Source: a virus
DNA: 64,000 bases
IMG/VR virus record: IMGVR_UViG_3300045988_125828
Coordinates: 4,999 to 68,998 of that record
Strand: one strand, 5' to 3'
Shown: positions 880-64,000 of the stretch, piece after piece
Layout: every line of letters starts with the position of its first letter
Numbering within the stretch: position 1 is the stretch's first letter
The notes under the pieces: model-generated
Told to the model about the DNA's origin: nothing
What the model saw: the letters and a program-made list of their open reading frames with translations, nothing else
Databases searched by the model: none
Position numbers and translations under genes: made by a program

Positions 880-910
880 GTTTTTCATTTGGCGTTATAG
901 AAAAAGGGCG

Positions 911-1109
911 TATATTTGCAGCGTCAAACATATTAAATAGAAAGCAGACGGAAGCCTGCTCATTGTAGGCATTTTTTATGCTTATATGTTCGCTGTATAT
1001 ATAATACAACGGTTGTTACTCCCATGAGAGATGTTAATGCACTCTCAACTGCTTTCTATAAAGTATGTTTGACAATGGGGCGGTTGCAACCGTTTTTTTA
1101 TTTTTTTTT
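911..1109 (+). promoter_or_regulatory. promoter plus structured leader/short RNA ending in an intrinsic terminator (leader L0)
   Basis: TATATTTG 911-918 fits the Bacteroidetes -7 box TAnnTTTG. GTCAAACATA 923-932 pairs with TATGTTTGAC 1064-1073. AACGGTTG 1008-1015 can pair with CAACCGTT inside the terminator CGGTTGCAACCG plus T7 (1081-1099). Confidence 0.5.
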
Positions 1110-1114
1110 AGAAT

Positions 1115-53575: not shown

Positions 53576-53980
53576 ATGAAAGTAACAGCGGTAATTGAAA
53601 TGTGGGACGACAAGACAATCAGTGTATATGTCCCCGAATTTGACGGTTTCAGCTTGAGCGGTCAAGGAAAAAGTGTAGATGAAGCAAAATGTGCGCTACA
53701 TGAATGTGTCGAAGATTATGTTGCCTTGTTTAAAGAACAAGGAAAAGACGTTCCTAAATCATTGGTTGATATAAACTTTGAATACAAGTATGATATAGCG
53801 TCTTTTTTTGAGAATTTCAAGTTTATAAGCGTATCTACCTTTGCCAAGTATGCGGGTATTAATCCATCGCTAATGCGGCAATATAAACAAAGAATAGCTT
53901 TTGCTTCTGAAAGTCAAAAGAATAAGATCGAAAGTGCTATACATAAAGCTGGTAAAGAACTGGCAGCCGTAAGGCTTTGA
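53576..53980 (+). CDS. hicB: HicB-family antitoxin
   Basis: The N-terminal segment MKVTAVIEMWDDKTISVYVPEFDGFSLSGQGKSVDEAKCALHECVEDYV is HicB/UPF0150-like. The C-terminal part is HTH-like. Confidence 0.75.
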   Translation: MKVTAVIEMWDDKTISVYVPEFDGFSLSGQGKSVDEAKCALHECVEDYVALFKEQGKDVPKSLVDINFEYKYDIASFFENFKFISVSTFAKYAGINPSLMRQYKQRIAFASESQKNKIESAIHKAGKELAAVRL

Positions 53981-54020
53981 TATATCATTTGTTTACATCT
54001 CCTCTTTTGAGGAAACTAAG

Positions 54021-54050
54021 GCGGTGGAATTTTGGTTTCACCGCTTTTTT
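54021..54050 (+). terminator. intrinsic terminator after hicB
   Basis: GCGGTG 54021-26 pairs with CACCGC 54039-44, followed by T6. Confidence 0.7.
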
Positions 54051-54056
54051 ATTGCA

Positions 54057-54294
54057 TTTTCCTTTGGCATTTTGATTTGAGTTAGTATCTTTGCGGCATA
54101 CTTCGCCAAAGTATGATATGTATAGTATTCTGATTACGGCATATTTTATGTCGTTTTGACTGCTATATCGCAAAGATATAAGCCGTTAGACTTCCTTGAT
54201 AGGCTGTAATTGGAAACTATTATAGTCGTACTTTGGCGAGTAAAGGGAAGCTAACGGCTTTCTTTATATCTATAACTCAAATTTCATTTATCAA
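54057..54294 (+). promoter_or_regulatory. promoter plus about 200-nt structured leader (L1), paralog of L2
   Basis: 40 nt (54057-54096), including the -7 box TATCTTTG 54086-93, are identical to 59058-59097. Helix a is 54103-13/54229-39. Helix c is AGCCGTTAG 54181-89 / CTAACGGCT 54251-59, overlapping a small hairpin plus T-rich tract. Confidence 0.55.
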
Positions 54295-54927
54295 ATGCCA
54301 AAGTACAATGAAATCAGAGTTGAGCAGAACAATAGTATGCCCCTCTTTGCGCCTAACAGTGCGACAACTGTATCGTTATCTCTACTAAGTACCACAAGCG
54401 AAATCAAACGCTACTTCATGGCGGTGCTTGAATTATCAAAATCAAAAGAAGAATTTCCGGTAAATCTTGATGCGGTGTGGGCACTTGCTTATACCACCAA
54501 AAGAAACGCCTTTGTTGAACTTAAAAAATCATTTATTGAAGGTGTTGATTTTTACCTTATGCAAAAGAATAAGGTCATAAATACCAACAACTTAGCAAAC
54601 GGAGTAAAATACGATTGCTACCTTTCCCTACCCTGCATAGAATTCTTCATAGCAAGGAAAGTTCGCCCCGTATTTGATGTGTACCGCGAAGTCTTCCACA
54701 AGGTAAACGAGATTGTCCCGAAGGTTGCCAAATCAAGCGCAGCCGACAAACGGAAGATAGCAAGACTTGAAAAAGAAATCGAAACACTCGAAGAACAACT
54801 CAAATGGGCAAGGTGGAGCGAACGCAGGGAAATAGAACTAAAGTGCGCTTGCTTCTCCTATCTCGTAAAGACGAAGCAATACAAGAACTGGGAAGAATAC
54901 AGAAGAACGGGGATAGTCAAAAAGTAA
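54295..54927 (+). CDS. AntA-like antirepressor-domain protein (copy 1)
   Basis: CYLSLPCIEFFIARKVRPVFDVYREVF and a C-terminal coiled coil. 227 nt (54640-54866) are closely similar to 59626-59852. Confidence 0.65.
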   Translation: MPKYNEIRVEQNNSMPLFAPNSATTVSLSLLSTTSEIKRYFMAVLELSKSKEEFPVNLDAVWALAYTTKRNAFVELKKSFIEGVDFYLMQKNKVINTNNLANGVKYDCYLSLPCIEFFIARKVRPVFDVYREVFHKVNEIVPKVAKSSAADKRKIARLEKEIETLEEQLKWARWSERREIELKCACFSYLVKTKQYKNWEEYRRTGIVKK

Positions 54928-54932
54928 TAGCC

Positions 54933-55016
54933 ATGGTTGAAATACTTATTGTGCTGGGTAGCCTTTTATCAGGCTACCTCACTTTCCGAAAGAACGGAGA
55001 GAAACTTTTCTATTGA
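54933..55016 (+). CDS. possible 27-aa membrane peptide (or conserved hairpin element)
   Basis: MVEILIVLGSLLSGYLTFRKNGEKLFY. Also contains the hairpin GGTAGCC..GGCTACC. A paralog lies at 59944. Confidence 0.25.
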   Translation: MVEILIVLGSLLSGYLTFRKNGEKLFY

Positions 55017-55039
55017 TATAACTTAAAAATTTCATACTT

Positions 55040-55879
55040 ATGAACACTTCAATTATTAAATTCGATTACAACGGAAATCAAATTCCTTTTGAAAAAGGAG
55101 ATGATGTAATGGTAAACCTTACAGCTATGGCGAAAGCCTATCCTGATAAGAATTTATCCACAATTGTTAACTCACAGGAAATCAGTGATTATTGCGCATC
55201 CCTTTCAAAACTAAAAAATTTTAGTTTTGCTGATTTACTGATAGTTAGGAAAGGAGCACCCGATTTAGGAGGAGGTACTTGGGCGCATCGCCTTGTCGCT
55301 ATTCGTGTCGCTCAAAAACTAAATTCCGATTTAGCGGTATGGGTGGATATGAGAGTGGATGAACTTCTTAAATACGGCATGACCGCTACACAGCCAACTT
55401 TGGAACAAATGATTAACAACCCCGACCTTGTTATCAGCCTTGCCACCCAGCTAAAGAACGAACGAGAGGAGAAACAAAGGATAGAGACAGAAAATTTGTA
55501 TCTAAAAGAACAGAATGAAGCACAGCGCCCGGCTGTTGTATTTACAGAAAGCGTAAAGGTAAGTAACACAAACATACTTATTGAAGACCTTGCGAAGCTG
55601 ATAACTCAAAATGGATATACTATTGGGGAAATCAGATTATATAATTGGTTGGTGGATAATGGGTATTTGATACGGCATAAAAGATGGAGCAATTCAAGAA
55701 GGAAATATGAAAACTATTATACTCCAACGCAGAGAGCTGCGGAAATGAAGTTGTTTTGGGTTTCAGAAAGGGTAATTTCAAATCCAGGTCAACCGCAGTT
55801 TACAAAATTTACATGCTATGTCACAGGAGAGGGGCAGGTGTATTTTATTAATAAATTCAATAAATTAAAAGTAGCATAA
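55040..55879 (+). CDS. KilA-N / KilAC (ANT) antirepressor-like protein (copy 1)
   Basis: N-terminal segment IKFDYNGNQIPFEKGDDVMVNLTAMAKAY...GTWAHRLVAIRVAQ is KilA-N-like. C-terminal segment LAKLITQNGYTIGEIRLYNWLVDNGYL...VTGEGQVYF is KilAC-like. Confidence 0.75.
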   Translation: MNTSIIKFDYNGNQIPFEKGDDVMVNLTAMAKAYPDKNLSTIVNSQEISDYCASLSKLKNFSFADLLIVRKGAPDLGGGTWAHRLVAIRVAQKLNSDLAVWVDMRVDELLKYGMTATQPTLEQMINNPDLVISLATQLKNEREEKQRIETENLYLKEQNEAQRPAVVFTESVKVSNTNILIEDLAKLITQNGYTIGEIRLYNWLVDNGYLIRHKRWSNSRRKYENYYTPTQRAAEMKLFWVSERVISNPGQPQFTKFTCYVTGEGQVYFINKFNKLKVA

Positions 55880-57228: not shown

Positions 57229-57410
57229 AACCCTACGTAATTACCTCTATGGCTCTCATTACACACAGCGGGAAAAAGTTACCGCTTACAGTAATAGAGA
57301 GCCACATCCTAACAAAACCTTTGGAAACAATCAAGGATAAGCTGCTTGATGCTTTCTCTACGATGAAAGACAAGCCGGTGAATGTTGAATTGAAAATAAA
57401 ATATGTATGA
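57225..57410 (+). CDS. hypothetical protein
   Basis: 61-aa ORF with coupled start/stop overlaps on both sides. Confidence 0.5.
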   Translation: MKPYVITSMALITHSGKKLPLTVIESHILTKPLETIKDKLLDAFSTMKDKPVNVELKIKYV

Positions 57411-57760
57411 AAAATGTAGAAAGTAAAATACAAATAGCTTGTGTTAATTGGTTTCGTTACCAATATCCCAAATACAAAAAACTCCTATTTTCTGTTCCTA
57501 ATGGTGGCGCAAGAAATTCAATCACTGGAGCAATCCTAAAAATGGAGGGCGCGCTTGCAGGCGTGTCTGATCTTATTTTTTTGAAACCGAACCGTTTTTA
57601 TGGCTGCTTGTGCATTGAAATGAAACAGCCAAAAGGGAGACAACAAGAAAGCCAAAAAGAGTGGCAGAAAGCCGTAGAGTCAGCAGGAAATAAATATGTT
57701 GTTGTCCGTTCGCTTGACGAGTTTATAGAAGTAGTAACCGATTATCTGAAAGATGTATAA
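57407..57760 (+). CDS. VRR-NUC domain nuclease
   Basis: GVSDLIFL...CIEMKQPKGRQQESQKEWQKAVESAG fits the VRR-NUC D..(D/E)xK..Q..W pattern. Confidence 0.8.
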   Translation: MKNVESKIQIACVNWFRYQYPKYKKLLFSVPNGGARNSITGAILKMEGALAGVSDLIFLKPNRFYGCLCIEMKQPKGRQQESQKEWQKAVESAGNKYVVVRSLDEFIEVVTDYLKDV

Positions 57761-57762
57761 CT

Positions 57763-58056
57763 ATGGCAGAATCATTTAAGAATGATTACAAGGACGACAA
57801 ACTCCGCTGGGATTTGCTCCCGCTGGATTTGATAGAGGAAATAGTTAAGGTATATCACTTTGGCGCAAAGAAGTACGCTCCTAATAGCTGGCAGAATCTT
57901 CCTGACGCGGAAAACCGATATTATTCTGCGCTTCTTCGGCACTTGGTAGCATATCGAAAAGGTGAAACGAAAGACGAGGAAAGCGGGCTTCATCCGCTTG
58001 CTCATGTTATATGGAACGGGCTTGCACTGCTCTATTTTGCAATAAAGAAAAAATAA
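57763..58056 (+). CDS. dATP/dGTP diphosphohydrolase N-terminal-like domain protein (tentative)
   Basis: KLRWDLLPLDLIEEIVKVYHFGAKKYAPNSWQN...LLRHLVAYRKGETKDEESGLHPLAHV resembles that family as I recall it. Confidence 0.5.
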   Translation: MAESFKNDYKDDKLRWDLLPLDLIEEIVKVYHFGAKKYAPNSWQNLPDAENRYYSALLRHLVAYRKGETKDEESGLHPLAHVIWNGLALLYFAIKKK

Positions 58057-59055: not shown

Positions 59056-59057
59056 GA

Positions 59058-59292
59058 TTTTCCTTTGGCATTTTGATTTGAGTTAGTATCTTTGCGGTGA
59101 AAAGTTCGCCAAACTTTTATAATACAGCATTTAGGATAGGGATTTTTTATATCCTTATGACTACTGCTTATCGCAAAGATATAGCCGTTAGTTTCCCATT
59201 GAATACCTATCCATTTGCGATATGTAGAAGTTTGGCGACTTGGGGAGGCTAACGGCTTCTTCTTTATATATAACTCAAATTTCGTTTTCAAA
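59058..59292 (+). promoter_or_regulatory. promoter plus structured leader (L2), paralog of L1
   Basis: -7 box TATCTTTG 59087-94. Helix a is TCGCCAAACTT 59106-16 / AAGTTTGGCGA 59228-38. Helix c is AGCCGTTAG 59183-91 / CTAACGGCT 59249-57. Confidence 0.55.
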
Positions 59293-59937
59293 ATGCCAAA
59301 CTTCAACGGAATTGTGAGTACATTGAATAATAGTAGATGTATAAACACGTCTGCACACGAAACGTGCATCCTTTCATTATCTTCTTCAACAGAAGACATT
59401 AAGCGTTATTTTAAAGCTATTTTGGAACTTTCAAAACTGGATGTTCCATATCCTGTCAACCTTGATTACGTGTGGATGCTTGCCTATTCAAGAAAGGACA
59501 AGGCAGTAACAGCACTTAAAGAAAATTTCATTGAAAGCATTGATTACCAAGTTTTCCACCAAAAAGGGGAAAACCCAAAAGGTGGCAGACCAACAATAGA
59601 ATACCACCTCTCCGTCTCCTGCTTGGAATACTTCATTGCCCGCAAGGTTCGTCCCGTATTCGATGTGTACAGAGAAGTCTTTCACAAGGTGAATGAGATT
59701 GCACCAAAGGTCGCCAAGTCAAGCGCAGCCGACAAGCGGAAAATTGCAAGGCTTGAAAAGGAACTGGAGTTCACGAAAAATCTTCTCGAATGGACAAAGT
59801 GTAGCGAACGCAGGGAAATCGAACTAAAGTGCGCTTGCTTCTCCTATCTCGTTGAAACCAAACAATACGACAAAATGGTTGAGCACAGAGAGCACAAAGC
59901 AGCCGAGAGAATGAAACGGGAATTAGGTTTAATCTGA
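59215..59937 (+). CDS. AntA-like antirepressor-domain protein (copy 2)
   Basis: GGRPTIEYHLSVSCLEYFIARKVRPVFDVYREVF. The real start is probably ATG 59293 (MPNFNG), after the leader. Confidence 0.65.
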   Translation: MRYVEVWRLGEANGFFFIYNSNFVFKMPNFNGIVSTLNNSRCINTSAHETCILSLSSSTEDIKRYFKAILELSKLDVPYPVNLDYVWMLAYSRKDKAVTALKENFIESIDYQVFHQKGENPKGGRPTIEYHLSVSCLEYFIARKVRPVFDVYREVFHKVNEIAPKVAKSSAADKRKIARLEKELEFTKNLLEWTKCSERREIELKCACFSYLVETKQYDKMVEHREHKAAERMKRELGLI

Positions 59938-59943
59938 CAAAGC

Positions 59944-60039
59944 CATGATTGAAATACTTATCGTACTGGGTAGCCTTTTATCGGGCTACCTCACTTTCCG
60001 AAAAAAGGGAGAGAAGTTCTTTTATTGAGTAAAATCTAA
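59944..60039 (+). CDS. possible micro membrane peptide, frameshifted relative to its paralog
   Basis: MIEILIVLGSLLSGYLTFRKK... An A7 run (60000-60006) shifts the C-terminal frame relative to 54933-55016. Confidence 0.2.
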
Positions 60040-60049
60040 AATTTATTAT

Positions 60050-60865
60050 ATGAAAACAAATCAAATTTTCCAGTACAATGGAAATCCTATCACTTTTTAT
60101 AAAGGTGATAACGTTATGGTGAACGCCACTGAAATGGCTAAGCCGTTCGGTAAATTGGTTGGTGATTGGATTAGATTGAAAACTACTACCGAGTTCGCAG
60201 AAGCACTTTCAGCCGATATGCAGATTCCCATATCGGCACTAATTCAAGTAGTTAAAGGAGGAAATAATGAACAAGGAACATGGATGCACGAAGATATTGC
60301 TTTGGAATTTGCCCGTTGGCTAAGTCCTGCTTTTGCTATATGGTGTAATAAGCGCATCAAAGAATTACTCCAATACGGCATGACTGCCACGCAGCCAACT
60401 TTGGAGCAGATGATAAACAACCCCGACCTTGTTATCAGTCTTGCAACACAGCTAAAGAGCGAACGCGAGGAAAAGCAAAGGATAGCTTGTGAAAATCAAA
60501 TCCTCAAAGAACAAAACAAAAACATAATTGAAGAAACCAAACCAGCCGTAACATTTACAAACGCTTTTAGAGGGGCGGAAAGTTCATGCCTTATCGGAGA
60601 GCTTGCAAAGCTCATTGCGCAGAATGGATATAATATAGGTGAAAAGAAATTGTTTGCTTGGATGCGCGAAAACGGATATTTAGGCAAACATGGAGAAAGG
60701 TATAATGTACCTAATCAGAAGTATATCGAACAGGGGTTATTTGTAATCAAAAAAGGTGTACGTTCCGGAAATAATGGAGTTTTGCATACCACTTTGACTA
60801 CAAAGGTGAGCGGCAAAGGCCAGGTTTACTTTGTGAATAAATTCCTTAATTCGTTTTCAATATGA
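60050..60865 (+). CDS. KilA-N / KilAC (ANT) antirepressor-like protein (copy 2)
   Basis: GTWMHEDIALEFARWLSPAFAIW is KilA-N-like. LAKLIAQNGYNIGEKKLFAWMRENGYL...NQKYIEQGLF...VSGKGQVYF is KilAC-like. 60372-60485 is closely similar to 55371-55484. Confidence 0.75.
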   Translation: MKTNQIFQYNGNPITFYKGDNVMVNATEMAKPFGKLVGDWIRLKTTTEFAEALSADMQIPISALIQVVKGGNNEQGTWMHEDIALEFARWLSPAFAIWCNKRIKELLQYGMTATQPTLEQMINNPDLVISLATQLKSEREEKQRIACENQILKEQNKNIIEETKPAVTFTNAFRGAESSCLIGELAKLIAQNGYNIGEKKLFAWMRENGYLGKHGERYNVPNQKYIEQGLFVIKKGVRSGNNGVLHTTLTTKVSGKGQVYFVNKFLNSFSI

Positions 60866-61840: not shown

Positions 61841-62611
61841 TTGGAGAGGAGGAATGGTTTTGAAAATAATAAAATGAAAGAAATAAAACTTACACATGGT
61901 TCCCTTTTTAGCGGCATAGAGGGCTTTGGGTTAGGCGCTGCACTTGCTGGCATAAAGACCGAATGGAGTTGTGAATTTGAGGATTATCAATCGTTAGTAA
62001 TAAAGAAAAACTTTGGAGAAGAGCATGAGATCAATAGAGATATTAGAACGTATCAAAGTCCTCCGTTTGTTGACATCGTCAGCGGTGGATTCCCTTGTCA
62101 GGACATCAGCATTGCTGGGAAAGGCATCGGAATTATCGGTGAAAGAAGCGGCTTATGGACTGAGATGTATAGAATTATACGGAAAATTAGACCCCGTTAT
62201 GTTATCGTTGAAAACAGTCCAATGCTCCTTGTTCGAGGGTTTGAGCACGTCTTATGCAACCTTTCCGAAATCGGGTATGATGCTGAATGGCAATGTTTAT
62301 CGGGTACCGACTTTGGAATACAACAGGGTAGGGAGCGATTATATTGTATTTCCTACCCCAACGAAGTCAACGGCAAACGGAGCATGCAAGAATCGGTATT
62401 TCGGAAGCCCTACTTACCGGGGCAATATACACGAGTATATCCGGGATGGCGAACAAGACAGTCAATACCCTCACCCAAGTTTGTTGGAAAATATAATGAA
62501 CTTCCCAATTGGGTGGAGCGAGTGCAATGTTTAGGAAATGCGGTACAGCCGATAATTGCGCATTATCTGTTTGAGTGCATTAAGATATTTGACAGAAACA
62601 TAAAGAATTAA
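61841..62611 (+). CDS. DNA (cytosine-5) methyltransferase, compact
   Basis: FSGIEGF (motif I), GGFPCQDIS (IV), ENSP (VI), QQGRERL (VIII), GNAVQP (X). Likely start ATG 61874. Confidence 0.8.
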   Translation: MERRNGFENNKMKEIKLTHGSLFSGIEGFGLGAALAGIKTEWSCEFEDYQSLVIKKNFGEEHEINRDIRTYQSPPFVDIVSGGFPCQDISIAGKGIGIIGERSGLWTEMYRIIRKIRPRYVIVENSPMLLVRGFEHVLCNLSEIGYDAEWQCLSGTDFGIQQGRERLYCISYPNEVNGKRSMQESVFRKPYLPGQYTRVYPGWRTRQSIPSPKFVGKYNELPNWVERVQCLGNAVQPIIAHYLFECIKIFDRNIKN

Positions 62612-62638: not shown

Positions 62639-63121
62639 ATGAATACACAATTTGAACGTTCAGCTAAACCTACCGATGAATGGTACACACCAAAAGAAAT
62701 AATAGACGCATTGGGGAAGTTTGATTTAGACCCATGCGCTCCGGTTTACCCGTTATGGAAAACCGCAGATGTAATGTACAACAAGGACAATGACGGGTTG
62801 CGTCAAGAATGGTTTGGAAGAGTTTGGCTTAATCCTCCCTACTCAAAGCCTCTGATGTGGCAATTTGTAGAGAGATTATCGGAGCATGGTAACGGTATAG
62901 CCTTGCTATTTAATAGATGTGATAGCAATAAATTTCAAGACATAATTTTTGAAAGAGCTACGGCGATGAAGTTTTTAAGAAATAGAATAAAATTCTTTCG
63001 CCCGGACGGTACTCGCGGAGATTCGCCCGGATGTGGCAGTATCCTCATTGCTTTTGGAGAGGATAATGCAGAAGTGCTAAGGACGTGTGATATAGCAGGT
63101 AAGTATGTACGAATCAATTAA
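62639..63121 (+). CDS. phage-type DNA N6-adenine methyltransferase
   Basis: DEWYTPKEIIDALGKFDLDPCA and WLNPPYS (the NPPY catalytic motif). Confidence 0.8.
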   Translation: MNTQFERSAKPTDEWYTPKEIIDALGKFDLDPCAPVYPLWKTADVMYNKDNDGLRQEWFGRVWLNPPYSKPLMWQFVERLSEHGNGIALLFNRCDSNKFQDIIFERATAMKFLRNRIKFFRPDGTRGDSPGCGSILIAFGEDNAEVLRTCDIAGKYVRIN

Positions 63122-63138
63122 ACTAACAACAATACATT

Positions 63139-64000
63139 ATGAAAAAGAAATTAACTCCTGATAATATTCAGGAACTTACAGAAAATCAGATATTCGTTTT
63201 TGGCTCAAACATGAACGGTAATCATGCCGGAGGTGCGGCAAGATTGGCAGTAGAAAGATTTGGTGCAGTGATGGGGCAGGCAGAAGGCATACAAGGCCAG
63301 TCCTACGCCATTCCAACGTTAGATAAGGATATGCAGAAAGTAACCGAGGAAGAGTTAATGACCTATTTAGGAAACTTCCGAGAATTTGCTGAAGAGCATC
63401 CGGAAAGGGAATTTCTGCTTACTGCAATAGGAACGGGAATAGCCGGATTTGACACAAACTATATGGCGTACATGATACTTAGAGCAAATCTTCCTGATAA
63501 TGTTACTCTGCCAAAGGAGTTTACCAAAATAAAAGGATACAAGGGTTTTAATCCGGATATGACATGCCGAGGGTTTAAATACGAAGAAGGCAAGGACTAC
63601 GAGGAGGAAGGAGAAATAGGAGCTTGCGAAAATGGATTTCATTTTTGTCTTCATCCATTGGATGTCTTTGGATATTATCCGCCTGCTTATATAGGTATGA
63701 ATAAGTTTCACGAAGTTGAGGGAAGCGGTTATATGGATGCGGATGAGGATGATACAAAGATCGCTTGTTCTAAAATACATATCGGAACAAAACTCGATAT
63801 AAAAGGGCTTGTGAAAGCAACCGTATCCTATGTAAAGGAACGGTGCACTAATAGGAATAATGCAAATCCTGGGTTTCCTGCGACCGCTGGTAATTATGGT
63901 GCTGCGACCGCTGGTAATAGAGGTGCTGCGACCGCTGGTGATAGTGGTGCTGCGACCGCTGGTAATTATGGTGCTGCGACCGCTGGTTATAGAGGTGCTG
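63139..64000 (+). CDS. multi-domain protein, 3' end outside the window
   Basis: ATG 63139, open to the window edge. N-terminal segment IFVFGSNMNGNHAGGAARLAVERFGA..GQSYAIPT. Middle segment CRGFKYEEG..CENGFHFCLHPLDVFGYY. Then ATAGxxGA octapeptide repeats. Confidence 0.7.
   Translation, partial: MKKKLTPDNIQELTENQIFVFGSNMNGNHAGGAARLAVERFGAVMGQAEGIQGQSYAIPTLDKDMQKVTEEELMTYLGNFREFAEEHPEREFLLTAIGTGIAGFDTNYMAYMILRANLPDNVTLPKEFTKIKGYKGFNPDMTCRGFKYEEGKDYEEEGEIGACENGFHFCLHPLDVFGYYPPAYIGMNKFHEVEGSGYMDADEDDTKIACSKIHIGTKLDIKGLVKATVSYVKERCTNRNNANPGFPATAGNYGAATAGNRGAATAGDSGAATAGNYGAATAGYRGA
63880..64000 (+). repeat. 24-bp tandem coding repeat (at least 5 units, truncated by the window)
   Basis: GCGACCGCTGGTnnnnnnGGTGCT repeated in frame, encoding ATAG(NY/NR/DS/NY/YR)GA. 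Confidence 0.9.

Follow-up and report, generated by a model that had tools for sequence, protein, structure and literature searches.

Leaders of two paralogous antirepressor operons in a Bacteroidota phage as candidate two-state RNA switches with matched segments

Two paralogous operons on a 64,000-nt stretch of viral DNA, here called the window, are headed by the leaders L1 and L2, and the question is how these leaders act on the genes behind them. The source phage is a temperate phage of gut Bacteroidota with an integrase gene at 44169-45302 (PHROGs/Pfam annotation of the window). The reading put forward here, with a probability of about 0.6, is that L1 and L2 are self-contained two-state RNA switches built from matched segments, each leading one of the antirepressor operons.

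In each operon it is the second gene, with its KilA-N and ANT domains, that is clearly an antirepressor. The first genes had been labelled antA-like in an earlier, sequence-only reading; the label is weak, with Pfam AntA (PF08346) scores of 17.7 and 18.4 bits for the 210- and 214-aa ORFs against a gathering cut-off of 27, and a probability of 36% when the 210-aa ORF was compared by hhalign with a true AntA protein. A PHROG search with this ORF gave no match. Its family comprises 1314 homologues, every one annotated as hypothetical, and has a hypervariable N-terminus. Genome contigs searched with the 210-aa protein gave no relative. The INPHARED phage collection gave a single fragment without annotation (MT836332, 61% query coverage) and a match of about 110 bp in KilA-N to LoVEphage; identity of the window with LoVEphage was rejected because the match is limited to this segment.

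The promoter block common to both leaders, given earlier as 40 nt, is identical over 41 nt and occurs only twice within the window. Primary-sigma promoters of Bacteroidota have the consensus -33 TTTG / -7 TAnnTTTG. Both elements are present at 54063-54093 and at 59064-59094 with the spacer within 17-21 bp, and a pattern scan of the window gave 8 matches with 2.5 expected. Judged from the sequence, transcription of L1 would start at about 54098-54101. The promoter motif was found on 76 IMG/VR stretches, on 75 of which it is followed by the leader; the 76th lies at the end of its DNA. The distance from promoter to ATG is fixed at 197-214 nt in the 75 homologous leaders measured, and the promoter is nearly invariant while the recognition sequences are hypervariable. 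A search of genome contigs with a 19-mer of the promoter gave 16 matches in unrelated taxa, none followed by a leader, which were judged to be chance matches because the database is that large.

In total 129 full-length homologous leaders were collected from loci fetched from IMG/VR and human-gut metagenomes, comprising 44 unique sequences and 22 clusters at 93% identity. The main covariation tests used 21 representative homologues aligned in anchored blocks, with slid-column controls and 500 shuffles, the counts of which are not probabilities because the leader sequences are related. A plain MAFFT alignment undercounts the pairs of P2 and P5 because of register shifts; anchored blocks and comparisons of cognate with chimeric pairs were used instead. 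A second clade of leaders (L178, L212 and L151, homologous to the third leader of the window, L3) has the same layout with unrelated recognition sequences, and the L178 leader precedes a true AntA+ANT gene. Run over the window, the covariance model R1 returned L1, L2 and L3 and nothing else, and over 96 loci it added no member to the second clade.

L3 precedes ORF 1115-1492, for which a search for relatives gave only one, identical, copy, and then ORF 1524-2351, a paralogue of the 210-aa family. The covariance model scores L3 at 77 bits, L3 being among the sequences used to train it. The RNAfold energy of L3 is -66.5 kcal/mol (z -6.4); the z-scores of L1 and L2 are -8.0 and -6.3, and none of 200 shuffles folds equally well. 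L1 and L2 had been described as paralogous structured leaders, and each element then claimed was found in its place. No family of Rfam 15 reaches its gathering score anywhere in the window, and the hits of an E-value scan of 53950-54400 are all at chance level and include neither C4 nor IsrK, in agreement with the earlier statement that no known RNA class is recognised. The statement that no leader peptide is evident was likewise borne out, since no small ORF is conserved across the leaders; a leader peptide beginning at an AUG inside segment A was rejected, the AUG being found only in L002.

Table 1. Positions of the leader elements and of the operons in the window.
Feature	Position	Strand	Remarks
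L1 leader, whole	54056-54320	+	heads operon 1
L1 promoter block	54056-54096	+	-33 TTTG 54063-66, 19-bp spacer, -7 TATCTTTG 54086-93
L1 5' arm X	54094-54142	+	49 nt; contains A, P1 and 5' arm of P2
L1 alternative hairpin P1	54097-101 / 54111-115	+	within X
L1 A	54102-54117	+	TTCGCCAAAGTATGAT; within X
L1 hairpin P2	54136-54154	+	ACGGCAT / ATGTCGT; 5' arm 54136-42; conserved U-rich loop
L1 hairpin P3	54164-54180	+	TATATC-GCAAA-GATATA
L1 helix P4	54181-54259	+	54181-89 plus 54191-97 with 54244-50 plus 54251-59; 16 bp; encloses Y
L1 central arm Y	54199-54242	+	3' part is B
L1 B	54225-54240	+	GTCGTACTTTGGCGAG; antisense to A and to start region
L1 small hairpin T	54243-52 / 54256-65	+	forms in minimum-free-energy fold
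L1 U-rich tract	54260-69	+	TTCTTTATAT
L1 hairpin P6	54275-88 / 54307-20	+	18-nt loop holds start codon and target of B
L1 start codon	54295-97	+	in P6 loop
L1 target of B (TIR)	54296-54306	+	TGCCAAAGTAC; in P6 loop
Operon 1	54295-55879	+	210-aa ORF 54295-54927, then KilA-N + ANT antirepressor 55040-55879 (Pfam, PHROGs)
L2 leader, whole	59057-59319	+	paralogue of L1; heads operon 2
L2 promoter block	59057-59097	+	-33 at 59064-67, -7 at 59087-94
L2 A	59106-21	+	
L2 P2	59138-43 / 59151-56	+	
L2 P3	59168-83	+	
L2 P4	59183-98 / 59241-57	+	
L2 Y	59201-41	+	contains B at 59223-38
L2 U-rich tract	59258-69	+	
L2 P6	59273-86 / 59305-19	+	
L2 AUG	59293	+	target of B 59294-59304
Operon 2	59293-60865	+	214-aa ORF 59293-59937, then KilA-N + ANT antirepressor 60050-60865 (Pfam)
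L3, third, diverged leader	888-1114	+	same architecture (RNAfold, sequence and ORFs)
L3 promoter	888-918	+	
L3 X	923-47	+	
L3 P2	965-85	+	
L3 P4	1008-25 / 1075-94	+	
L3 Y	1049-73	+	
L3 U-run	1095-1111	+	T7AT9; canonical, directly 3' of P4

Helix a, the 11-bp pairing between the 5' end of the leader and a distal segment from which the sequence-only reading began, is TCGCCAAAGTA/TACTTTGGCGA in L1 (54103-13 / 54229-39) and TCGCCAAACTT/AAGTTTGGCGA in L2, with two positions changed on both strands. These compensatory double substitutions are present as described, and the helix, here A:B, extends to 14-16 bp. Covariation in homologues, which had been named as the check, is strongly positive both for this helix and for a 9-bp pairing treated below. 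Among the 21 representatives A:B is 82.6% paired, with 61.7% in shuffled data and none of the 500 shuffles reaching the observed value, and its covariation score is 0.599 (shuffled 0.190). The variable part of B contains 17 different 9-mers in the same set. Cognate A:B duplexes have an energy of -20.8 kcal/mol and non-cognate ones of -11.8 kcal/mol.

What had been missed is that helix a is merely the base of a rod of about 40 bp, in which the 5' arm X (49 nt) pairs with the central arm Y (about 44 nt). The rod is a long imperfect duplex with bulges, kept by covariation in both clades. The X:Y duplex energy is -44.9 kcal/mol for cognate and -21.2 for non-cognate arms; for the rod without A:B the values are -18.5 and -7.3 kcal/mol, the cognate partner being the best in 18 of 21 rows. 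The alternative hairpin P1 within X is 80% paired and all five of its pairs change on both sides; since A lies in a palindromic stretch, this covariation and that of the rod are not independent.

The main point of this analysis, absent from the sequence-only reading, is that B is also antisense to the start codon. Lying about 65 nt 5' of the AUG, B is the complement of two segments, A and the translation start, and all three covary. In every leader of the L1/L2 clade its target runs from the U of the AUG over a further 10-12 nt of the ORF, to codon 4 or 5, and the resulting B:TIR helix of 11-13 bp has the same position in all 25 unique IMG/VR leaders. On the anchored alignment B:TIR is 95.2% paired (69.2% shuffled, 32-43% in the slid controls), which none of the 500 shuffles reaches, with a covariation score of 0.685 (shuffled 0.171) and duplex energies of -17.9 kcal/mol for cognate and -9.8 for non-cognate pairs. 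The match of A, B and TIR holds in 17 or more specificity types. The leaders L1 and L2 are mutually orthogonal, B1 with TIR2 giving -9.1 and B2 with TIR1 -9.2 kcal/mol compared with -17.3 and -17.1 for the cognate pairs, and orthogonal specificities are seen in two genomes that carry two modules. Given the complementarity of B to the AUG region, the regulated step most likely includes translation initiation. In the second clade the layout with A:B and B:TIR is found in three of five types; complementarity of Y to TIR above background was not found in the other two, the L3 of the window and L151, and masking of TIR is thus not universal in the wider family.

The 9-bp pairing, AGCCGTTAG/CTAACGGCT, had been called perfect. 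It is borne out by covariation and continues to the 16 bp of P4, with one bulged A in L1 and as a continuous helix in L2. P4 is 86.7% paired, 11 of its 16 pairs are changed on both sides, and it is predicted unaided by RNAalifold. Across both leader clades it is 85% paired, 12 of 15 pairs are double-changed and none of 500 shuffles reaches the observed value. Directly 3' of P4 the next 10 nt contain 7-9 U in 21 of 21 leaders.

Hairpin P2 is found in all 21 representatives with 18 different 5' arms and a mean energy of -7.6 kcal/mol, compared with -3.2 for chimeras. Its 5' arm has two alternative covarying partners, the P2 3' arm and Y; since this arm is also part of the rod, P2 and the rod are mutually exclusive. 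The P2 loop is invariant and, with the 'UUGACUGC'/P3 motifs, a candidate site for a bound protein. P3 is 84.5% paired and mostly invariant. The inner eight pairs of P6 are 94.3% paired, seven of them changing on both sides, and RNAalifold agrees. P5 was spotted by eye, and a crude test of its halves gave no support. The earlier description of the leader as a conserved structured element acting in cis on the + strand, with mutually exclusive folds, is supported.

All 21 leaders have the rod as their minimum-free-energy fold. The mean penalty for a fold constrained to contain P4 is 11.4 kcal/mol, and for one constrained to contain B:TIR it is 12.0; with few exceptions the leaders favour the rod by 10 kcal/mol or more over each of these alternatives. 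With the 5' arm deleted in silico, P4 takes over in 14 of the 21 leaders and B:TIR in 7. When successively longer prefixes are folded, P1, P2 and P3 appear first, and the rod then zips from its apex while Y emerges.

The two-state switch would work as follows, the assignment of ON and OFF and the terminator function of P4 being inferred. In state R, X pairs with Y as the long rod and B is buried. The rod would hold the ends of Y far from each other and so keep P4 open, and the exposed AUG would allow read-through and translation (ON). P6 pairs the region just 5' of the AUG with codons 5-9, so the ON state may translate weakly. In state H, X would fold on itself as P1, with A in the loop, and P2, and P4 would close, forming an intrinsic terminator together with the U-tract. 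Any transcript extended beyond it would have B free to pair with the start region, giving OFF at both levels. The rod and P4 would be mutually exclusive on steric grounds; a short A:B helix and P4 may coexist as a pseudoknot, one of the arrangements proposed earlier. Because the rod is the ground state and can zip during transcription, OFF would need a trigger that occupies or removes X. By analogy with IsrK, CI and c4 the trigger is most likely a trans-acting copy of the leader RNA, and a protein bound to the conserved P2 and P3 loops is a candidate alternative. Given the stability of the rod, the OFF state might be rare.

It is possible, at appreciably less than even odds, that the leader is mainly a small-RNA gene for a trans-acting immunity RNA of the c4/CI/IsrK type. 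Transcripts of about 165-170 nt ending at P4 and the U-tract would then accumulate and, by way of B, bind A, the start region or both in other transcripts, and so set antirepressor expression, with a specificity of its own for each phage or module. This reading overlaps with the two-state switch and differs in which action is primary. The layout matches that of phage P4 (seqA-seqB-seqC) and of the IsrK-orf45-anrP leader (PMC4825925), and in phage P1 icd-ant is controlled by c4 RNA (PMC8198154). The hypervariable recognition sequences behind a nearly invariant promoter and the orthogonality of the modules of one genome agree with it, as does the geometry, which is that of kissing loops: the target of B occupies a hairpin loop of 18 nt, and A and B, too, can each be held in the loop of a hairpin. 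Against it, the predicted fold of the leader ending at the U-tract buries B by A in 21 of 21 cases, so that the antisense segment of a terminated, free leader would be masked from within unless processing occurred, and no processing signal was identified in the leaders. The Rfam C4 and IsrK models give no match, and compensated divergence also arises under purely cis action. To our knowledge, moreover, Bacteroidota lack Hfq.

A classical attenuator or riboswitch, as proposed in the sequence-only reading, is unlikely. In it the small hairpin T with the T-rich tract would be the terminator and the 9-bp pairing the antiterminator. Hairpin and tract are both present in the two leaders, the hairpin coexists with the rod in the minimum-free-energy fold, and hairpin and 9-bp pairing are mutually exclusive. 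As a conserved structure, however, the hairpin was rejected, as it has no covariation and its pairing (72.6%) equals that of shuffled data (72.3%) and of data slid by one column (72.3%); a terminator scan lists it in L2 (59242-62) and not in L1, and the leaders of the second clade keep P4 and the U-run without a consistent small hairpin. An antiterminator ties up the 5' half of the terminator, so that no hairpin abuts the U-tract, and the 9-bp pairing is not of this kind. It uses the loop and 3' strand of the small hairpin, so that P4 has its own 3' end at the U-rich tract, which is the geometry of a terminator and not of an antiterminator; P4 itself would be the terminator hairpin. For the riboswitch-like reading there is no sign of a ligand pocket and no known aptamer in Rfam, a leader peptide is also lacking, and B:TIR is left unexplained.

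A little less likely still is that the rod is a processing or stability element, an RNase III-type site like those of the lambda N leader or the T7 early region, where cleavage would separate the leader from the mRNA and set its stability or translation, the switch alternatives being secondary. The length and imperfection of the rod, its covariation in both clades and its being the ground state in all 21 leaders fit such a site; why P2, P4 and B:TIR are conserved as well, being competitors or neighbours of the rod, is left unexplained. Very improbable, finally, is a DNA-level origin, in which A, B and the start region are three operator copies for a DNA-binding regulator or P3 holds a minus-strand promoter: the GCCAA/TTGGC core does recur, also beside the -33 box (54062-70 reads CTTTGGCAT, which is ATGCCAAAG reverse-complemented), A follows closely on the inferred transcription start, and P3 on the minus strand reads TAnnTTTG in 31 of the 44 unique leaders, but the aligned pairings of the homologues contain 67 G.U and 7 A.C among the non-Watson-Crick cells, as for an element acting as + strand RNA and not as duplex DNA, on which asymmetry the operator idea was rejected, P2, P4, P6 and the bulged 40-bp rod have no operator logic, the promoter copy of the core does not covary with the type of start region, and the minus-strand motif is absent from 13 of the 44 leaders.

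Post-transcriptional control is poorly charted in Bacteroidota and their phages. The leaders define a widespread family of about 130 copies with unusually clear three-way covariation, sited before antirepressor genes of temperate gut phages, and the first gene of the operon has more than 1,300 homologues. The family is a model, testable by mutation, for the gating of prophage induction or of superinfection cross-talk, and offers a natural set of orthogonal RNA-RNA recognition pairs. More speculatively, and somewhat doubtfully, the leaders might form an RNA-based, self-specifying immunity layer in which a terminated or processed leader acts in trans on A and the start codon, and on cognate transcripts alone. 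If so, the switching would be bistable or timed and come in a large number of orthogonal specificities, of which 17 or more were seen, one phage could run two or three independent antirepressor modules, and the layer would decide cross-induction between co-resident prophages.

Among known systems, IsrK-orf45-anrP of the Salmonella Gifsy-1 prophage is a leader with a terminator before an antirepressor operon and has two alternative structures; its long default form is inactive, and a short RNA form acts on and activates the long form (PMC4825925). The likeness lies in a same-strand leader before a first ORF and then an antirepressor-like gene, in a terminator at the leader end with partial read-through, to which P4 and the U-tract are likened by prediction, and in a long transcript that can fold in two ways, the start of the first ORF being hidden in one of them (here predicted) (PMC4825925). 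In contrast to the inactive default form of IsrK, the default fold predicted here leaves the AUG free, the first ORF is 210 aa instead of 45 aa, and the Rfam family models of IsrK and C4 give no match. The host differs as well, since Bacteroidota, as far as we know, lack Hfq and start translation independently of a Shine-Dalgarno sequence.

CI RNA of the satellite phage P4 (seqA-seqB-seqC) also has an antisense leader segment with an upstream and a downstream site in the same transcript, in a system tied to premature transcription termination, which here is predicted (PMC4825925). Unlike the present leaders, CI is released by processing and controls replication genes, its targets are not the start codon of an antirepressor operon, and the upstream partner here extends into the intramolecular rod of about 40 bp.

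The immI operon of P1/P7 is c4-icd-ant, and c4 RNA controls icd-ant (PMC8198154). As in the c4/IsrK type, L1 and L2 are same-strand leaders of antirepressor operons of a temperate phage, and in their clade the antisense segment has one site upstream, A, and one downstream at the start of the first ORF. Like c4, the RNA is co-transcribed with its target and is predicted to block the start of the first ORF before the antirepressor. Related phages have different specificities, brought about by matched changes in the two partners; here this is seen at the sequence level, where cognate duplexes are the stronger ones. The c4 RNA differs in being about 77 nt long and matured by RNase P, with two recognition loops and Rho-dependent polarity, and the Rfam C4 model (RF01695) has no match here. 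Details of the a'/b' and a2/b2 pairings of c4 were reportedly given by Citron & Schuster in 1990. Were the leader RNA to act in trans, Bacteroidota would have in it an equivalent of the classic immunity RNAs P1 c4 and P4 CI.

Attenuators and riboswitches share with the present leaders a 5' position, mutually exclusive helices and a U-rich tract 5' of the ORF. They differ in that there is here neither aptamer nor leader peptide, the start codon is a pairing partner, and the best-supported helix at the U-tract is the long-range P4 and not the small hairpin. The mRNAs of the hok family, with tac/fbi and ucb/dcb elements, are said to show "coupled covariations" (Gultyaev, Franch and Gerdes in 1997). 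They are toxin mRNAs with an opposite-strand antisense RNA and 3' processing, and differ in this from L1 and L2. As in hok, metastable 5' hairpins form first, here in the prefix folds, and one element has two alternative covarying partners, which would here, as proposed, give a programmed folding pathway that gates translation.

The main finding beyond the sequence-only reading is a three-way pairing in the leaders (L1 and L2) of the two paralogous operons. The leader sample came from queries with the 210-aa protein, which gave 79 IMG/VR loci and 80 metagenome loci. A profile search of these loci placed the leader at 132 sites, every time on the strand of the gene, and the 129 full-length copies reduced to 44 unique sequences, which fall into 22 clusters at 93% identity. 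In every leader the segment B, which is the distal strand of the 11-bp helix in the sequence-only reading, has two complementary partners, the 5' segment A and the translation start region (TIR). The B:TIR helix of 11-13 bp joins B, at -59 to -69 relative to the ATG, to a target that begins with the U and G of the AUG and runs 9-11 nt further into the reading frame.

The three segments were aligned by anchoring on the invariant cores CCAA and TTGG. The 12 pairs of B:TIR were 95.2% paired versus 69.2% when shuffled and 32-43% in slid controls, with a covariation score of 0.685 versus 0.171, reached by 0 of 500 shuffles. The A:B helix proposed from sequence alone held up likewise: its 17 pairs were 82.6% paired versus 61.7% shuffled (slid controls 35-49%), and its score was 0.599 versus 0.190 (0/500 shuffles). 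Among 21 representatives there are 17 different variable 9-mers in B, and the duplex energies are better for cognate than for non-cognate partners, both for A:B (-20.8 versus -11.8 kcal/mol) and for B:TIR (-17.9 versus -9.8 kcal/mol). The target of B spans codons 2-4, and for this reason the 210-aa-family protein has a hypervariable N-terminus; the remainder is conserved. A DNA operator was also considered and is disfavoured by the 67 G.U versus 7 A.C among non-Watson-Crick cells, an asymmetry that points to plus strand RNA.

The four features of the sequence-only reading were all found where it had placed them, and the leader structure is stable far beyond shuffled sequence (L1 -75.8 kcal/mol, z = -8.0; L2 -65.7 kcal/mol, z = -6.3). 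A long rod extends from A:B as its base; in it the 5' 49 nt of L1 (arm X) pair with the central arm Y. In 21/21 leaders this rod is the fold of minimum free energy. X:Y is cognate-specific (-44.9 versus -21.2 kcal/mol), also with A:B removed (-18.5 versus -7.3 kcal/mol, the cognate partner being best in 18/21 rows). Conservation extends to P2, P4 and P6, helices that either compete with or bracket the rod. All 21 leaders have P2, in 18 versions of its 5' arm (-7.6 kcal/mol versus -3.2 for chimeras), and this arm doubles as part of the rod. P6 displays the AUG and the B target in an 18-nt loop, and its inner helix is 94.3% paired. Two sets of coupled covariation are seen in the leader, A / B / TIR and P2-5' / P2-3' / Y. 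In folding of growing prefixes P1, P2 and P3 form earliest; later, as Y emerges, the rod zips up, apex first. Read on the minus strand, the P3 sequence TATCGCAAAGATA resembles a -7 promoter box (TAnnTTTG), and the same is true of P3 in 31 of the 44 unique leaders; P3 may thus hold an antisense promoter or be no more than a hairpin.

The proposed 9-bp pairing extends into P4, a 16-bp helix that is 86.7% paired, has 11 pairs changed on both sides and is independently predicted by RNAalifold. Over both leader clades it is 85% paired, with 12/15 pairs changed on both sides. The proposed roles of this pairing, as antiterminator, and of the small hairpin with its T-tract, as terminator, fared less well. 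No covariation signal was seen for the hairpin, which is 72.6% paired versus 72.3% shuffled and 72.3% when slid one column; it pairs in any register because a purine-rich strand opposes a pyrimidine-rich one. A U-rich tract (7-9 U per 10 nt) lies immediately 3' of the P4 3' strand in 21/21 leaders, which argues that P4 looks like a terminator hairpin rather than an antiterminator.

Positions in the window of the leaders, their elements and other features
Feature	L1 copy	L2 copy	Elsewhere
Leader	54056-54320	59057-59319	888-1114 (L3)
Strong terminator just before promoter	54018-54047		
41-nt promoter block	54056-54096	59057-59097	
CTTTGGCAT	54062-70		
Most likely transcription start	near 54098	near 59099	
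P3	54164-54180	59168-59183	
Y	54199-54242		
Spacer between first ORF and KilA-N/ANT gene	54928-55039	59938-60049	
Terminator-like hairpin in spacer	54982-55001	59994-60013	
ORFs downstream of L3			1115-1492 (125 aa), 1524-2351 (275 aa)
Integrase			44169-45302
Structured segment, minus strand			49140-49360
Promoter-like site			49362-49392
Genes between or downstream of modules			61841-62611, 62639-63121, 57407-58056
24-nt tandem repeat			63878-64000

The 41-nt block opening both leaders is identical in L1 and L2 and has no further occurrence in the window. It comprises -33 TTTG, a 19-bp spacer and the -7 box TATCTTTG, a layout that matches the Bacteroidota promoter consensus; a pattern scan gave 8 matches in the window versus 2.5 expected. 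With a strong terminator ahead of the L1 promoter, transcription most likely starts just past this block. On each of 76 IMG/VR stretches the promoter 19-mer was found a single time, and 75 of them have the leader; in the 76th the motif lies at the end of the available sequence. A fixed interval of 197-214 nt separates the -7 box and the ATG. The spacer is as strictly conserved as the two boxes (~75 contigs) despite diverging leaders, and may be an operator for a phage repressor. CTTTGGCAT in the promoter and ATGCCAAAG at the start codon are exact reverse complements, probably by chance since the promoter copy shows no covariation with start-region type.

The window is a temperate phage with genes for integrase, terminase, portal protein, major head protein and primase; no close relative was found among isolated phages. 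Some of the metagenome contigs span 100-400 kb, as would fit integrated prophages. L1 and L2 each head one copy of a duplicated ~1.8 kb module; the two copies, separated by 5 kb, consist of leader, 210/214-aa ORF and a KilA-N + ANT antirepressor gene, with coding repeat blocks 72-82% identical. The ~112-nt spacer between the two genes is conserved (79% identical) and has a terminator-like hairpin. The genes between or downstream of the modules encode a C-5 cytosine methylase, a Dam-like N6-adenine methylase, a VRR-NUC nuclease and a dATP/dGTP diphosphohydrolase N-terminal domain. The 24-nt repeat CTGCGACCGCTGGTAATTATGGTG, with at least 4 in-register copies 88-98% identical, reaches past the window end and may encode a repetitive structural protein, e.g. 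a fibre. On the minus strand, a stretch of 225 nt that follows another promoter-like site is strongly structured (-51 kcal/mol, z -5.0, mononucleotide shuffles) and includes a long near-perfect hairpin; the architecture is unlike that of L1/L2-type leaders.

A covariance model trained on both clades found exactly three copies in the window. The third, L3, has the same architecture of promoter, X:Y rod, P2, P4 and U-tract (a canonical T7AT9 run), and the second ORF downstream of it is a paralogue of the 210-aa family. Its homologues are leaders in the fetched loci L178/L212, L150, L151 and L155/158. In L178 (3720-3975) and L212 (8314-8569) the next gene is a true AntA + ANT(KilAC) antirepressor. 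Their start region (GACCTACA..ATGGC) repeats the 5' arm in condensed form, so that the principle is seen again with recognition sequences unrelated to those of L1 and L2. X:Y is cognate-specific in this second clade (about -28 versus -6 to -14 kcal/mol), and the start region is a condensed X copy in 3/5 types, the exceptions being L151 and L3, where no clear Y:TIR complementarity was found. Loci L076-L078 and L135-L144 encode distant relatives (45% identity) of the 210-aa protein and carry another, short type of leader ~110 nt ahead of the gene, with a 5' end GGTGTGACA complementary to the 9 nt TGTCACACC immediately before the ATG. The homologues in L013 and L060 are without promoter and leader and adjoin the preceding ORF, in L013 with a Shine-Dalgarno-like AAAGGAGG.

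The folds formed by the established pairings are mutually exclusive, and the best-supported interpretation of the leader is a two-state switch. We infer that the rod is the ON state, in which B would be buried, P4 open and the AUG free; on steric grounds a complete rod would separate the ends of Y too widely for P4 to form. In the P1/P2/P4 state the terminator-like P4 would form and turn expression OFF, and in read-through transcripts free B would mask the AUG. Imposing P4 on the fold costs an average of 11.4 kcal/mol and imposing B:TIR 12.0; with the 5' arm deleted in silico, the predicted fold changes to P4 in 14/21 leaders and to B:TIR in 7/21. With the rod as ground state, reaching the OFF state would require a factor that occupies or removes X. 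An attractive candidate, by analogy with IsrK, P4 CI and P1 c4 (PMC4825925, PMC8198154), is a trans-acting copy of the leader RNA; modules inside one genome have orthogonal specificities. The terminated leader is predicted to bury its own B, so trans action may need processing, or a protein on the invariant P2/P3 loops.

No earlier description of L1/L2-type leaders was found in the literature searched. They share the layout of the enterobacterial leader RNAs gating antirepressors, but L1 and L2 match no Rfam family, in agreement with the sequence-only reading, and belong to another host phylum. What sets them apart from the enterobacterial RNAs is an intramolecular rod of ~40 bp and a target at the start codon.
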